Source: Acinetobacter phage vB_AbaS-Bhz15. Taken from it: a stretch of DNA of 64,000 bases. The position numbers and the translations under genes are program-made. This document shows, in pieces, positions 60,610 to 64,000 of this stretch; the stretch's first letter is position 1, and each line of letters begins with the position of its first letter. The DNA lies in the sequence record PV067732.1, one strand, 5' to 3'. The notes below the pieces were generated by a model that was not told the origin of the DNA, made no database searches, and saw nothing but the letters and a program-made list of their open reading frames with translations.

Positions 60610-61242
60610 ATGGATAACATCGATTTAGCATTAAAAGTAGTTGAAGATCAAAATGATGCATTAGATTATCTTCATACTGCTATCGCAGTAAATGGCGACA
60701 AATATTCAAACATGATTGATATTCTAAAAGTAGTTGCAGCATCAAACTACCGACAACGCATCATGATTACTGGCGTAGGTAAAAATTCAAATCTTGCAAC
60801 TAAAGCGTCTGAAACATTTGCAAGCCTTGGCATCCCATCCATGTATTTGAACACATGCCATTATTCTCATGGTGATGCAGGATTTATCGGGCATGATGAC
60901 GTAGTTATCCATGTTTCACGTTCTGGTAAAACAGAAGAAATGCAATATATGGCGCGTCATTTGAAGACTATTCGTCCTAATGTTCTTCAAATCTTGTTGC
61001 ACTGCAATAGCCAATTAACTGAAGAGCAAAAGGCGCCATTTGACATCGAATTTGGTATTCCGGGCATTGTCGAATGCGATGATAATCATCTTGCACCAAC
61101 AACAAGTACAACAGTGCTATTGGTTTTGTTGGATACTATTGGTGTAATTTTGTCTAAACACCTTAGATTCACTCGTGAAGATTTTTATTCATACCATCCA
61201 GGTGGTTCACTTGGAGCAATGCTCAAATCTGAATCAAAATAA
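60610..61242 (+). CDS. SIS-domain phosphosugar isomerase (KpsF/GutQ/GmhA-like)
   Basis: 210 aa. IMITGVGKNSNLATKASETFASLGIP...VIHVSRSGKTEE is the typical SIS fold signature. Confidence 0.7.
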   Translation: MDNIDLALKVVEDQNDALDYLHTAIAVNGDKYSNMIDILKVVAASNYRQRIMITGVGKNSNLATKASETFASLGIPSMYLNTCHYSHGDAGFIGHDDVVIHVSRSGKTEEMQYMARHLKTIRPNVLQILLHCNSQLTEEQKAPFDIEFGIPGIVECDDNHLAPTTSTTVLLVLLDTIGVILSKHLRFTREDFYSYHPGGSLGAMLKSESK

Positions 61243-61284
61243 TTTACTTTACATAAGAACTATGATATAATTGTCATAGTTCTT
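61243..61284 (+). promoter_or_regulatory. PeSL-like early promoter with the -10 in the hairpin loop
   Basis: TTTACT, a 17-nt spacer, then TATAAT. The 11-bp stem is AAGAACTATGA...TCATAGTTCTT. Confidence 0.6.
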
Positions 61285-61301
61285 TCTTAGGAATAAACAA
61301 T

Positions 61302-62975
61302 ATGAAAAAAGTCGTAATTTTAGGTGCAGGACTTGCAACTCGCCTATATCCAATCACCCATCATATTCCTAAAGTCTTAGTGAATTATAAGCAACACACA
61401 ATTTTGCATCATTTATATTCATTGTACACTAGACTTGGTGCTGAACAAATTATTGTGGCTGTTCATAGCAAGTTTGCTTCACAAGTTAAAGAATATGCAA
61501 AGTTGTTCGGGCTTGACATTGTTGTCGAAACCGTCGATGAAGCGTATGGTTCGGCTTATGCAATTTCTAGATTAGCAGATCATGTCAACGGTCACAACGT
61601 TGTTTTTAACTGGTGTGATGTCATCCCGGATTTTGATGCATTTCGATGGGATGCAAATGCAATCTATACCTTTGGTGATGAATGTCGATATAGCTACAAT
61701 GGCAAAACTTTGAAAGAACACATTGTTGGTACAGGTGGTAACGTTGTAGGCATATACCAATACCGTGATTTCTTTATTTCACGTATCAATGACAAAGATG
61801 AAGCTAATGAGTTCTTTAAAGGGCGTGATTTTGTTGAATTAATTGACACAACAAATGAAGCATTTTATCAAGATTATTTGCTTAATTTAGTTGACTTAGG
61901 GGACAAGCCTAAGCTTGAAATTGCACATCGTAATCGTGAACTTAATCGTGAATTCAACCAAGTGACTATGGCCTCAGGTGTTGTTTATAAAGCGGCAATC
62001 AATGAAAAAGGACGTCAATTGCAAAAAGAAGAACTTGCATGGTATGCAAAGGTTGATAGCCCTGCATTGCCAAAAATTCTTGATCGTCGTGAAACTGACA
62101 AAATAATGTCATTCAAAATGGAACGTATCATCGGCAAACCGATGTTTGAAGTGTATACGCCAGAATTATTGCCGAAAATTCTCGAGACTCTCAAATTTGA
62201 TAAAATGCCAGAGTTTACATCTCGTGAACAGATCATCAACGATTATCAATATGAGGTCATTGACAAAGTCATGAGCCGTTGTGATGAAATTAAAGGAGTC
62301 ATCAAATCATTTGGCGACATCGAATATGTCAATAATGTCAAAATCGGACGTTTAGAAACAATGTTGAAGCAAGCATTTGCACATTTAACATATGAAGCAA
62401 ACGATAAAGATTATTATGTTATTCATGGCGATCCAAACTTTAGCAATTTGATGCTTGATCAAAATGGCGAAGTTCGTTTAATTGATCCACGTGGATATTT
62501 TGGCAAAACAAAAATCTATGGGCCTCGAATTTATGATGAAGCTAAAGTGCTTTATGCATTATCAGGATATGATAAATTTAATTCAGATCATATGTGGGGT
62601 GGATTAGCTATTAATGGCAATGCTGCAACGATCAATATTGAACCATTAAGTGTAACATCTCTTCATAGTAAATATTTTAACGAATACCATCATCTCTGGG
62701 TTGCAGTGATTTGGATTGCTCTTGCAGGATATTTCAAAAATAATCCATTGAAATCAGTTAGTGCATTCTACTATGGTATGTATTTGTTAACGACGGCTCT
62801 TGATAAAATGGGACGTCGCCTGAAGGATGGATCAGTGGCTCATGATTCAGGATTAGTTCATGCAGTACTATCTACAAAAAATCCAGACAAATGGCTATTA
62901 ACTGATCTTGAAACAGGTGAAAAATATCGCCCTTCGAAATTTATTGGTGATATGCACTGGGAGAAAATTCAATGA
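61302..62975 (+). CDS. Bifunctional sugar-phosphate nucleotidyltransferase / sugar kinase
   Basis: 557 aa. N-terminal G-x-G-x-R nucleotidyltransferase motif (ILGAGLATRL). The C-terminal half has a protein-kinase-like/APH fold signature (HGDPNFSNLMLDQNGEVRLIDPRG). Confidence 0.7.
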   Translation: MKKVVILGAGLATRLYPITHHIPKVLVNYKQHTILHHLYSLYTRLGAEQIIVAVHSKFASQVKEYAKLFGLDIVVETVDEAYGSAYAISRLADHVNGHNVVFNWCDVIPDFDAFRWDANAIYTFGDECRYSYNGKTLKEHIVGTGGNVVGIYQYRDFFISRINDKDEANEFFKGRDFVELIDTTNEAFYQDYLLNLVDLGDKPKLEIAHRNRELNREFNQVTMASGVVYKAAINEKGRQLQKEELAWYAKVDSPALPKILDRRETDKIMSFKMERIIGKPMFEVYTPELLPKILETLKFDKMPEFTSREQIINDYQYEVIDKVMSRCDEIKGVIKSFGDIEYVNNVKIGRLETMLKQAFAHLTYEANDKDYYVIHGDPNFSNLMLDQNGEVRLIDPRGYFGKTKIYGPRIYDEAKVLYALSGYDKFNSDHMWGGLAINGNAATINIEPLSVTSLHSKYFNEYHHLWVAVIWIALAGYFKNNPLKSVSAFYYGMYLLTTALDKMGRRLKDGSVAHDSGLVHAVLSTKNPDKWLLTDLETGEKYRPSKFIGDMHWEKIQ

Positions 62976-63352
62976 TTCGTCCAAAACAATTTTGCTTTGA
63001 TGTCGATAATACCATCACTCTTTGGGATGATAGTCGTGACTATGAAAATTTCAAACCTGATCTTGAAATGGTATCAATGATCAATGAGTTATATGATCAA
63101 GGGCATCATATAACTCTATTCACAGCTCGAGGCATGACATCAGTAGGTTCAGATGCAATAAGCCGTGCTATTGTGCCTGCACTAGTTAAAAATCTTGAAA
63201 AGATTAAATTGAAATATCATCAACTGCTCACACATAAACCAGTGTATGATTGGATCATTGATGATAAGGCGTTGAACCCTAAAGAATTCAAAGATGCTTT
63301 TCGTAACAATGAATTATTATCTAAACAACCATATGTCCCAGAGGTGAATTGA
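62972..63352 (+). CDS. HAD-superfamily sugar phosphatase (GmhB/KdsC-like)
   Basis: 126 aa. DVDNTIT motif I and TARG motif. Confidence 0.7.
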   Translation: MIRPKQFCFDVDNTITLWDDSRDYENFKPDLEMVSMINELYDQGHHITLFTARGMTSVGSDAISRAIVPALVKNLEKIKLKYHQLLTHKPVYDWIIDDKALNPKEFKDAFRNNELLSKQPYVPEVN

Positions 63353-64000
63353 TGACAAAGTATATTTTAGCTAGCACATTTGAAGAAGCATTCAAACGCC
63401 TCAATTATCTAGTGATTACTGAACCTGAATTTGTCACGGATTCTCGTATCGGCAAATGTCGTGAAATCGGATCAATTCTTTTAGAGGTAGCACTTCCGGA
63501 TACTGGCGCAATTTTCAAAGATAAAAATATTAATCGTATCGATTATGGTTACGCAGAAAAATTCTGGGAATTCATGATCCAAGGTGGCACAGATGCGGAA
63601 CAAGCGTTTAAGGACTATCCAAATGTCGCGAAATTTATTGCGAAACCGAAAACGGATGCTTTACCTGCAAATTTCAATACCTTCTATGGGCCACGAATTG
63701 TTTCACAGTTACCAGCCCTTATCAAAGAACTTAAAGAAAAACCGAACTCACGACGTGTAGTTTTTCAAATTCTTCAAGAACAAGATCAAGTGCTTTTAGA
63801 TGCAGATGAATCGTTAGAATATCCATGTACAGATTCTGTTACCTTTTATATTCGTGAAGGACGTTTGTACATGCATACACATATGCGAAGCCAAAACTGT
63901 GCAGTAGTTATGCAGCTCGATTTTTATTTGATGCACCGATTCATGGAATATATCGCAAAAGAATGCAATGTTGAATTTGGCACTTATGCACATTCTATTG
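63352..64000 (+). CDS. 42: dCMP hydroxymethylase gp42, N-terminal part; the gene continues past the window end
   Basis: Thymidylate-synthase-fold signature NSRRVVFQI...PCTDSVTFYIREGRLYMHTHMRSQN resembles T4 gp42 (NPDSRRGIMIY...MCTNTVQYLIRDKKINAVVNMRSND) from memory. Its ATG overlaps the stop of the HAD gene. Confidence 0.8.
   Translation, partial: MTKYILASTFEEAFKRLNYLVITEPEFVTDSRIGKCREIGSILLEVALPDTGAIFKDKNINRIDYGYAEKFWEFMIQGGTDAEQAFKDYPNVAKFIAKPKTDALPANFNTFYGPRIVSQLPALIKELKEKPNSRRVVFQILQEQDQVLLDADESLEYPCTDSVTFYIREGRLYMHTHMRSQNCAVVMQLDFYLMHRFMEYIAKECNVEFGTYAHSI

Follow-up and report, generated by a model that had tools for sequence, protein, structure and literature searches.

The window analysed in this work is a 64,000-nucleotide stretch of Acinetobacter phage vB_AbaS-Bhz15 (PV067732.1), and the region at its end belongs to a T4-like Acinetobacter phage, being 98.5% identical to AbTZA1 and 98.2% identical to Maestro over 3.6 kb. 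As the original prediction had stated, three consecutive open reading frames on the + strand lead into a gene of the thymidylate synthase (ThyA) family: an SIS isomerase gene (60610-61242, 210 aa), a nucleotidyltransferase-kinase gene (61302-62975, 557 aa), a HAD phosphatase gene (62972-63352, 126 aa) and, at the gene 42 position, the ThyA-family gene itself (63352-64000, + strand), which has 216 of its approximately 234 codons inside the window and runs past the window end with the last 18. The predicted TGATG overlap was likewise found in the sequence, formed by the TGA of the HAD gene (63350-63352) and the ATG of the ThyA homologue (63352-63354). A second overlap, absent from the earlier description, is the ATGA at 62972-62975 that joins the stop of the 557-aa gene to the start of the HAD gene. 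A Shine-Dalgarno-like GAGG, AGGA or GGAG lies 7-11 nt upstream of every start. The proteins of the cassette and the ThyA homologue share 99-100% identity with their counterparts in Maestro, 76-88% in DLP3, 54-72% in RB69 and 53.5-69% in HY126, and 371 phage records contain a homologue of the 557-aa protein; the cassette frames are real conserved genes and not chance ORFs.

Two non-coding stretches on the + strand may contribute to the expression of the cassette. A putative extended -10-like promoter element, TGATATAAT (60573-60581), precedes the isomerase gene by about 30 nt; its TGATATAATAG block is identical in the window, Maestro and DLP3. The spacer between the isomerase and the 557-aa gene (61243-61301) contains, according to the promoter scan, a sigma70-like promoter at 61243-61271 (TTTACT-17-TATAAT with TG, 10 of 12 matches). 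Part of this promoter coincides with a perfect 13-bp hairpin (61255-61284), behind which comes a T-rich run. RNA folding gave this hairpin -16.1 kcal/mol with a z-score of -4.5. The Lazarusvirus phages and Ac42 retain it with differing stem sequences, and the records of Maestro and PhaR5 label it as a terminator, a role it could also have here.

The product of the first gene is predicted to be a single-domain SIS D-arabinose-5-phosphate (A5P) isomerase converting ribulose-5-phosphate to arabinose-5-phosphate. It is orthologous to DLP3 gp83, RB69 gp55 and HY126 XAN60481, with identities of 100% to Maestro, 80% to DLP3 and 57% to both RB69 and HY126. The Pfam SIS profile matched above cut-off (E 6e-6), PHROG 5670 'arabinose 5-phosphate isomerase' matched with E 6e-102, and the NCBIfam profile search returned KpsF/GutQ (E 2e-30) and KdsD (E 7e-27) and no GmhA match. 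The A5P isomerase structures 5uqi, 3etn and 2xhz were recovered from the PDB (E 6e-27 to 4e-14), and the GxGK, HGD, SxSG.TxE and HPGG motifs align with them. The GmhA-type isomerase of the original prediction is thus replaced by one of the KdsD/GutQ/KpsF type and, because of this type, the sugar is expected to be arabinose-5-phosphate; of the 'NDP-pentose or NDP-heptose, such as an arabinose derivative' proposed earlier, arabinose is retained and heptose is excluded.

The 557-aa protein is best described, from its sequence, as a bifunctional enzyme of the AfhE type, with a predicted sugar-1-phosphate nucleotidyl(uridylyl)transferase domain of RmlA/MurU/LicC fold at approximately residues 1-205 and a predicted ELK-fold anomeric sugar kinase domain, of choline-kinase/APH fold, at approximately residues 210-557. 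Pfam NTP_transferase matched residues 3-100 (E 7e-9) and NCBIfam HddC matched the transferase domain weakly (E 4e-7); Pfam by itself gives no support for the kinase, since APH stayed below cut-off. The GxGxR and HGDxxxxN..D motifs that had been named for the two domains are both present. The catalytic residues of both domains are unchanged in 42 homologues with identities as low as 29%: G10 and R14 of GAGLATR, P23 and K24 of the PK motif, H375, G376, D377 and N382 of HGDxxxxN, and IDPRG (residues 394-398) are all invariant. Structural neighbours of the kinase domain include N-acetylhexosamine-1-kinase, glucosamine kinase, maltokinase, fructosamine-3-kinase and methylthioribose kinase, the last of which phosphorylates C1 of a 5-substituted pentofuranose. 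HldE consists of a PfkB-type kinase and a cytidylyltransferase-like domain; the comparison with HldE made earlier therefore holds for analogy and not for homology.

That the third gene encodes a DxDxT HAD phosphatase was borne out by its FDVDNT motif (residues 9-14), by NCBIfam TIGR01689, the EcbF/BcbF capsule phosphatase (E 9e-11), and by its top PDB match, 9iqw (E 5e-45), whose chain reads the same as HY126 XAN60478 in the aligned part as displayed. The protein is 99% identical to its Maestro counterpart, 82% to DLP3 gp81 and 60-61% to RB69 gp51 and HY126, and as an AfhF-type enzyme it probably takes the 5-phosphate off arabinofuranose-1,5-bisphosphate. The isomerase, nucleotidyltransferase-kinase and HAD functions also occur fused as single polypeptides of 905-955 aa, the HAD part of which is of a different subfamily.

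The protein at the gene 42 position is of the flavin-dependent 5-hydroxy-dCMP synthase type and not a T4-type dCMP hydroxymethylase. It shares only 25% identity with T4 gp42 but 88% with DLP3 gp80, 72% with RB69 gp48 and 69% with HY126 XAN60475. When the full-length Maestro orthologue, 99% identical to the window protein, was used as query, the top PDB matches were 9iqu, 9iqc and 9ir2 (E 5e-110), whose aligned chain parts read the same as the HY126 ThyA homologue, whereas MilA and ThyA structures reached only E 1e-10. The catalytic Cys (T4 C148) and the dCMP-selecting Asp (T4 D179) are conserved; three residues before the Cys there is a conserved Glu where T4 gp42 has Asp, and this Glu matches the acidic L143E substitution that PMC13326640 describes. 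DLP3 gp80 and RB69 gp48 were found experimentally to produce 5-hydroxy-dCMP (5hodCMP) in vivo, to bind flavin and to incorporate 18O from O2 (PMC13326640). Since the ThyA homologue belongs to this group, the modified base is predicted to be 5-hydroxycytosine rather than 5-hydroxymethylcytosine (hmC). Homologues of the 5-hydroxycytosine type occur in 373 phage records, as against 371 for AfhE homologues, with near-identical counts per genus.

The absence of a glycosyltransferase led the original prediction to place the transfer step elsewhere or to regard it as novel. It does lie outside the window, and only the cut-off at the window end makes it seem absent: the genes directly behind the Maestro ThyA homologue encode a nucleotide kinase and three arabinosyltransferase orthologues, the latter corresponding to the DLP3 arabinosyltransferases gp79, gp77 and gp76 (70-92% identity). 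These downstream glycosyltransferases gave no Pfam matches; gp76 and gp77 of DLP3 use UDP-D-arabinofuranose (UDP-Araf) in vitro (PMC13326640). Judging by such near-identical relatives, the corresponding genes of Bhz15 probably lie just past the window end. The statement that the hmC glucosyltransferase genes of T4 are situated between imm and 42 proved incorrect, as the T4 order is 43, imm.1, imm, 42, b-gt, with b-gt on the far side of 42.

What this analysis shows directly is the structure of the genes, the folds of the domains, the conservation of the catalytic motifs and the orthology to characterised proteins. We consider it very likely that the cassette is a phage-encoded UDP-Araf pathway for arabinosylating 5-hydroxycytosine in virion DNA. 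In this pathway, the SIS protein would divert host ribulose-5-phosphate to D-arabinose-5-phosphate, the kinase domain at the C-terminus of the 557-aa protein would phosphorylate C1 to give arabinofuranose-1,5-bisphosphate, the 126-aa HAD phosphatase would remove the 5-phosphate, and the N-terminal nucleotidyltransferase domain would convert the resulting Araf-1-phosphate and UTP to UDP-Araf. The translationally coupled ThyA homologue would supply 5-hydroxy-dCTP for replication, and the glycosyltransferases beyond the window end may extend the 5-hydroxyl with chains of one to three arabinosyl units, so that the DNA would resist restriction endonucleases. Activities, step order, UDP carrier and base are proposed here by analogy with the literature on orthologues. 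The pathway is already known, having been described in 2025-2026 for HY126, RB69, DLP3 and Maestro (He et al., 2026, Nat Chem Biol; Mahler et al., 2025, Cell Host Microbe; both as summarised in PMC13326640). [quoted passage not shown] The route from ribulose-5-phosphate to UDP-Araf has been assigned to DLP3 gp81-83 and to RB69 gp51, gp52:53 and gp55; DLP3 and RB69 DNA contains poly-arabinosylated 5-hydroxycytosine, tri-arabinosylated in DLP3, and Maestro is among the phages with arabinosylated 5-hydroxycytosine (PMC13326640). T4-like phages of Acinetobacter and E. coli put activated arabinose on DNA 5-hydroxycytosine to evade host nucleases, and the cytosine hypermodification and nuclease resistance anticipated for Bhz15 are in line with these orthologous systems. 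Bhz15 presumably runs the same pathway as its characterised relatives.

Arabinosyl-hmC was the original 2018 reading for RB69. For Bhz15, the original prediction was that an NDP-pentose or NDP-heptose decorates T4-type hmC, the product of a genuine gene 42 dCMP hydroxymethylase, a view favoured by the position of a ThyA homologue after the DNA polymerase, by its retention of the Cys and Asp used by T4 gp42, by the dCMP hydroxymethylase annotation in several GenBank records and by the arabinosyl-hmC reported in RB69 (Thomas et al., 2018). Later work called that RB69 assignment erroneous, the protein stands far closer to the producers of 5-hydroxy-dCMP, with their O2-derived oxygen and flavin cofactor, than to T4 gp42, and the A5P-isomerase-type SIS protein excludes the heptose part; we regard hmC as highly improbable. 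Hardly credible is a role of the cassette as an auxiliary module of host or virion glycan metabolism (Kdo/LPS, capsule, virion protein glycosylation) unrelated to DNA, even though AbTZA1 is annotated with a 'capsular polysaccharide biosynthesis protein', the best NCBIfam match of the HAD protein is EcbF/BcbF, KpsF and KdsD, which serve capsule and Kdo synthesis, are members of the SIS family, and the depositors of 9iqw named it 'Capsule biosynthesis protein'. The Kdo pathway (KdsD-KdsA-KdsC-KdsB) requires only the isomerase, with neither a kinase/uridylyltransferase nor a phosphatase of the cassette type. Moreover, translational coupling links the cassette to the 5hodCMP synthase gene, the two co-occur almost one-to-one in about 370 phage genomes, and relatives carry DNA arabinosyltransferases downstream, two of which have been demonstrated to act on DNA with UDP-Araf.

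An alternative sequence of reactions, in which the HAD protein frees D-arabinose from arabinose-5-phosphate, the kinase then phosphorylates C1 and the transferase forms UDP-Ara without a bisphosphate, appears unlikely. Exactly this order is given for DLP3 gp81/gp82 and RB69 gp51/gp52:53 in Table 1 of PMC13326640, and several of the nearest kinase folds belong to enzymes for non-phosphorylated sugars (all the neighbours named above apart from methylthioribose kinase). The text of the same paper disagrees with its table and supports the bisphosphate route, AfhE of HY126 being presented there as a D-arabinose-5-phosphate kinase with AfhF acting on the resulting intermediate. Methylthioribose kinase among the structural neighbours also argues for the bisphosphate, and a 5-phosphate would keep the sugar in the furanose form, the one found in DNA.

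Compared with known systems, the UDP-Araf cassette is closest to the Afh pathway of HY126, an E. coli phage, in which an A5P isomerase, a 560-aa nucleotidyltransferase-kinase, a 128-aa HAD protein and a ThyA homologue follow in the same order, with full-length identities of 57%, 53.5%, 60% and 69%, respectively; crystal structures corresponding to its phosphatase and ThyA homologue head the PDB matches. In HY126 and RB69, the HAD gene and the ThyA homologue are separated by a U32-peptidase-like gene of 386-389 aa and a small ORF, whereas in Bhz15, whose host genus is Acinetobacter, these two genes overlap directly and no U32 homologue was found anywhere in the window. Gene-for-gene synteny from the split DNA polymerase to the helicase is shared with DLP3 (gp76-gp83), Maestro (CPT_Maestro_077-084) and RB69 (gp45-gp55); there is essentially no difference from Maestro, while Bhz15, of Hadassahvirus type, differs from DLP3 (genus Lazarusvirus) by about 20% protein divergence and another hairpin stem sequence. 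The likeness to the ADP-heptose route claimed originally holds for its bisphosphate logic: the ADP-/GDP-heptose pathway (GmhA, HldE or HddA+HddC, GmhB) also combines a ketose-phosphate isomerase, an anomeric kinase, a HAD phosphatase and a nucleotidyltransferase, and the SIS and HAD superfamilies are common to both. By fold and profile matches, however, the isomerase is of KdsD/GutQ and not GmhA type, and the ELK/choline-kinase-fold kinase and RmlA/MurU/LicC-type transferase are not homologues of HldE; pentose and DNA take the place of heptose and LPS. In AmgK/MurU (MurNAc recycling) and LicA/LicC (phosphocholine), the kinase and nucleotidyltransferase are separate proteins that work on non-phosphorylated substrates with neither isomerase nor phosphatase, whereas in the cassette they are fused within a four-step route. 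As with T4 gene 42 and its alpha- and beta-glucosyltransferases, a ThyA-family enzyme would make a C5-oxygenated dCMP before replication and glycosyltransferases would decorate the DNA, in a shared neighbourhood (43 ... 42-like ... GT ... 40/41); unlike in T4, the base would be 5-hydroxylated by flavin/O2 chemistry instead of 5-hydroxymethylated, and the sugar donor would be phage-made UDP-Araf instead of host UDP-glucose.

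The three genes of the cassette lie on the plus strand and encode an isomerase of 210 aa (60610-61242), a bifunctional nucleotidyltransferase-kinase of 557 aa (61302-62975) and a HAD phosphatase of 126 aa (62972-63352). They are followed on the same strand by the gene of a ThyA homologue, which starts at 63352 and continues past the end of the window. As analyzed here, the cassette is real, was correctly delimited, and reproduces almost identically a system that was published in 2025-2026, and so is already known. Each of the four start codons is preceded by a Shine-Dalgarno-like element. 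The 557-aa gene runs into the 126-aa gene through an ATGA overlap (62972-62975) and, exactly as the original prediction had claimed, the stop of the latter overlaps the next ATG in a TGATG (63350-63354); these two stop/start overlaps suggest that the last three genes are translationally coupled. By megablast, the region is 98.5% identical to phage AbTZA1, 98.2% identical to Maestro and Morttis (genus Hadassahvirus), and 78-83% identical to Lazarusvirus phages, among them relatives of DLP3. The region thus belongs to the T4-like Acinetobacter phages.

Previous studies with related phages describe the system in some detail. In RB69 and in the Acinetobacter phage DLP3, cytosine is replaced by mono- to tri-arabinosylated 5-hydroxycytosine, in which the sugar is ether-linked to C5 (Lee et al., NAR 2026, PMC13326640). 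The ThyA homologues DLP3 gp80 and RB69 gp48 make 5-hydroxy-dCMP using a flavin cofactor and incorporate 18O2. DLP3 gp83, gp82 and gp81 constitute a predicted route from ribulose-5-P to UDP-arabinofuranose, and gp76 and gp77 use UDP-Araf to attach the third arabinose on DNA (PMC13326640). According to the summaries in that paper, He et al. [quoted passage not shown] (2025) placed Maestro among the phages with arabinosylated 5hodC. Taken over Maestro, DLP3, RB69 and HY126, PMC13326640 gives reports of arabinosylated 5-hydroxycytosine in virion DNA and of enzymes leading from Ru5P or A5P to UDP-Araf. Earlier, the RB69 homologues had been flagged as UDP-arabinose candidates under the assumption of arabinosyl-hmC (Thomas, 2018; PMC6024577), an assignment for RB69 that later work called erroneous.

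The 210-aa protein is predicted to be a single-domain SIS arabinose-5-phosphate (A5P) isomerase, orthologous to DLP3 gp83 (80% identity), RB69 gp55 (57%) and the HY126 isomerase (57%), and it is 100% identical to the Maestro protein. Pfam recognized the SIS domain and PHROG 5670 was matched with an E value of 6e-102. The NCBIfam models retrieved were KpsF/GutQ (E 2e-30) and KdsD (E 7e-27), with GutQ also among the best matches and GmhA absent. Its PDB neighbours are the A5P isomerases 5uqi, 3etn and 2xhz, with which the GxGK, HGD and HPGG motifs (residues 55-60, 86-91 and 196-202) align. The C-terminal tandem CBS domains of full-length KdsD/GutQ (about 320-330 aa) are missing, in which the protein is like the single-domain isomerases 5uqi and 3etn. 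Since the CBS pair is absent, the protein falls under the curated cut-offs: it covers TIGR00393 (268 positions) at positions 2-153 only and scores 106 bits where the cut-off is 203.7.

The 557-aa protein most probably represents an AfhE orthologue, in which a sugar-1-P nucleotidyltransferase at the N-terminus precedes a kinase of the ELK fold. Full-length identity to the HY126 protein XAN60479 is 53.5%, and the values for other phages are 99.3% (Maestro), 76% (DLP3 gp82) and 54-60% (RB69). Pfam found the N-terminal NTP_transferase domain (E 7e-9), and profiles recognized the C-terminal part faintly (APH, E 0.004). A structure model (pLDDT 93.1) matched RmlA, MurU, LicC and GDP-mannose pyrophosphorylases over its N-terminal domain. 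As the top 50 Foldseek matches of the full two-domain model were all nucleotidyltransferases, the kinase domain was modelled and searched alone, which returned the choline-kinase/APH (ELK) fold. In an alignment of 42 sequences obtained by homologue search, G10, R14, P23, K24, D106, H375, G376, D377, N382 and D395 do not vary, even among sequences with identity as low as 29%. The phage database holds 371 records of the bifunctional gene and 373 of the 5hoC-type ThyA homologue, and the counts by genus are almost identical (177/177 in Escherichia, 56/56 in Acinetobacter and 25/26 in Klebsiella).

The third protein of the cassette is probably a small HAD phosphatase orthologous to AfhF. Its DxDxT motif reads DVDNT, and the best model, the NCBIfam EcbF/BcbF phosphatase (TIGR01689), was matched below its cut-off (E 9e-11), as was the generic HAD-SF-IIIA model (E 2e-4). 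The top PDB match was 9iqw (E 5e-45), whose aligned part reads as the HY126 CDS product, and identities are 99.2% to Maestro, 82% to DLP3, 61% to RB69 and, by BLASTP, 60% to HY126. For the DLP3 orthologue, a Foldseek match in AFDB to heptose-1,7-bisphosphate 7-phosphatase was reported (PMC13326640).

The neighbouring ThyA homologue is predicted to act as a linked 5-hydroxy-dCMP synthase, adjacent to the cassette and translationally coupled with it. It shares 99.1% identity with the Maestro protein, 88% with DLP3 gp80, 72% with RB69 gp48, 69% with HY126 and 25% with T4 gp42. With the full-length Maestro ThyA homologue as query, the top PDB matches were 9iqu, 9iqc and 9ir2 (E 5e-110), and the chains of the 9iqu group read as the HY126 CDS product over the aligned parts. 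When T4 gp42 is aligned with its counterparts from the window, Maestro, DLP3 and RB69, neither the column of the T4 catalytic Cys148 nor that of the dCMP-specifying Asp179 varies. At the third position ahead of the catalytic Cys, which is Asp in T4 gp42, the ThyA homologue carries Glu, matching the acidic L143E substitution described in PMC13326640.

These identities weigh against the reading of this gene as a true gene 42 working on 5-hmC DNA, as was first proposed: a T4-type dCMP hydroxymethylase was discarded because T4 gp42 is matched at 25% identity and the proven 5hodCMP synthase DLP3 gp80 at 88%, and orthology to T4 gp42 also in view of the 72% to RB69 gp48, experimentally a 5-hydroxy-dCMP producer. 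The base would then be 5-hydroxycytosine and the gene a 5hodCMP synthase. Other elements of the original prediction, namely its logic of enzyme steps, its suggestion of arabinose and its assignment to DNA hypermodification, are borne out. The comparison with the ADP-heptose route was sound in that logic and failed in homology for the isomerase and the bifunctional enzyme. HldE joins a kinase of the PfkB/ribokinase fold to a cytidylyltransferase-like adenylyltransferase, whereas the window protein has a choline-kinase/APH-fold kinase and an N-terminal transferase of the RmlA/MurU/LicC fold. No HldE/RfaE model was matched in the NCBIfam search of the cassette proteins. Homology of the set as a whole to GmhA/HldE/GmhB was consequently rejected, on NCBIfam matches of KdsD/GutQ type with neither GmhA nor HldE among them and on the different kinase and transferase folds.

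In the most probable mechanism, the SIS protein would convert ribulose-5-P to arabinose-5-P, which the C-terminal kinase would phosphorylate at C1 to Araf-1,5-P2; the HAD protein would take off the 5-phosphate to leave Araf-1-P, and the N-terminal transferase would combine this with UTP to form UDP-Araf. Meanwhile, 5hodCMP for replication would come from the coupled ThyA homologue, and transferases encoded downstream would arabinosylate the 5-hydroxyl. Another order of steps, in which the HAD protein acts first on arabinose-5-P and the kinase then on free arabinose, is given in Table 1 of PMC13326640; the text of the same paper, however, follows the bisphosphate route, and we regard the phosphatase-first order as a minor rival. 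Returning to the bisphosphate route, the gene structure, folds, motifs and orthology established in this analysis, together with the activities, step order, UDP carrier and base chemistry taken from the literature on orthologues, lead us to infer that vB_AbaS-Bhz15 itself carries out the arabinosylation pathway.

The transferases proposed for the last step, for which an Afh-type cluster would have one to three DNA arabinosyltransferases of the GT-B fold, would lie just beyond the window on the pattern of Maestro. The transferase, kinase and U32 proteins of DLP3, Maestro and RB69 gave no tblastn match below E 0.1 in the 64 kb, in agreement with the original prediction that no glycosyltransferase lies inside; its further suggestion that the transfer step lies elsewhere or is novel probably reflects where the window stops, since in Maestro orthologues of DLP3 gp79, gp77 and gp76 (70-92% identity) begin 6 nt past the ThyA homologue. 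Pfam found no GT domain in these Maestro proteins, so that their assignment derives from orthology to the DLP3 proteins and from published structure comparisons. The T4 glucosyltransferase gene b-gt, which had been placed between imm and 42, actually lies after gene 42.

Proteins of 905-955 aa were found that fuse HAD_2, SIS and NTP_transferase domains with the same kinase domain and are 30-34% identical to the 557-aa protein (homologues P0100, P0103, P0104, P0106, P0107, P0109, P0110, P0118 and P0119; locus L005, 10001-12730). Their HAD_2 domain belongs to a different subfamily from the HAD of the window. Such chains lend further support to a functional link between the cassette steps, and the arabinose pathway may occur outside phages in the form of one polypeptide chain. 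Among the sources are an NCBI record of the rotifer Rotaria and a EukProt transcriptome, with one protein each. P0103 lies on a 146-kb metagenome scaffold, with Ras/Arf GTPase, collagen repeats, DHFR-TS, UFD1, cyt-b5 and GT2 as neighbours, that looks like a giant virus.

Upstream of the cassette, gene 43 (DNA polymerase) comes in two pieces, one for an N-terminal part of 502 aa (53441-54949) and one for a C-terminal part of 409 aa (56669-57898), about 1.7 kb apart, with five small ORFs of unknown function between them (e.g., 55804-56118, 56115-56432 and 56429-56626). It is annotated as a two-piece join in Maestro and as split (43A/43B) in DLP3 and Acj9. Between polymerase and cassette (58136-60566) lie seven small plus-strand ORFs (97-150 aa), syntenic in Maestro and DLP3, which match PHROGs of unknown function only; the PHROG search found no link between them and the arabinose pathway. 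The product of 58833-59126 is a predicted membrane protein in the Maestro annotation, and the homologue of 59481-59933 is labelled 'putative anti-restriction nuclease' in PhaR5.

Phage DNA with arabinosylated 5-hydroxycytosine withstands many restriction enzymes, which bears on Acinetobacter baumannii phage therapy, on phage sequencing and engineering, and on defence versus counter-defence. With pathway, base and transferases already published for near-identical and related phages, the cassette raises no new question, and its practical value lies in annotation. GenBank carries names such as 'capsular polysaccharide biosynthesis protein', 'phosphoheptose isomerase', 'polynucleotide kinase', 'GlmU' and 'dCMP hydroxymethylase' on these genes, which should give way to A5P isomerase, Araf-5-P 1-kinase/UDP-Araf pyrophosphorylase, Araf-1,5-P2 5-phosphatase and 5-hydroxy-dCMP synthase.

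The spacer between the isomerase and kinase-transferase genes (61243-61301) contains a sigma70-like promoter sequence, TTTACT-17-TATAAT with TG, whose -10 lies inside a perfect 13-bp hairpin (61255-61284) followed by a T-rich run. A generic terminator scan passed over the hairpin, since its AT-rich stem fails the GC criterion, and folding found it; the Maestro and PhaR5 annotations list it as a terminator. Equivalent spacers occur at locus L002 (6434-6500), in Ac42 (L010, 1443-1500) and in Acj9 (L011, 7592-7651). Lazarusvirus phages and Ac42 keep a hairpin of 12-14 bp with entirely different stem sequences, and in Acj9 the hairpin comes before the TATAAT. A -10 in or near the hairpin loop with a T-run, kept in three Acinetobacter-phage lineages despite differing stems, could point to a terminator/promoter switch that times or balances UDP-arabinose and 5-hydroxy-dCMP synthesis apart from the isomerase, and the direct coupling of the HAD gene to the ThyA homologue without a U32-like gene could then mean that 5-hydroxycytosine forms without any need for the U32 protein that RB69 and HY126 carry; we consider this combined proposal unlikely.

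Compared with the known clusters, the window shares with Maestro and DLP3 the absence of the U32-peptidase-like gene that stands between the HAD gene and the ThyA homologue in RB69 (RB69p050; L003, 9120-10289) and HY126 (L006, 5540-6700). U32-family proteins have been implicated in the 5-hydroxylation of RNA pyrimidines, and for this reason the presence of the gene in the enterobacterial phages only is curious. Gene order differs as well: in Acj9 (L011, 4501-9699) the ThyA homologue, a transferase and a kinase stand at the front, with the isomerase, kinase-transferase and HAD genes located after gene 40, whereas in Ac42 (L010, 542-3177) the isomerase gene follows imm and the HAD gene stands apart from the kinase-transferase gene.
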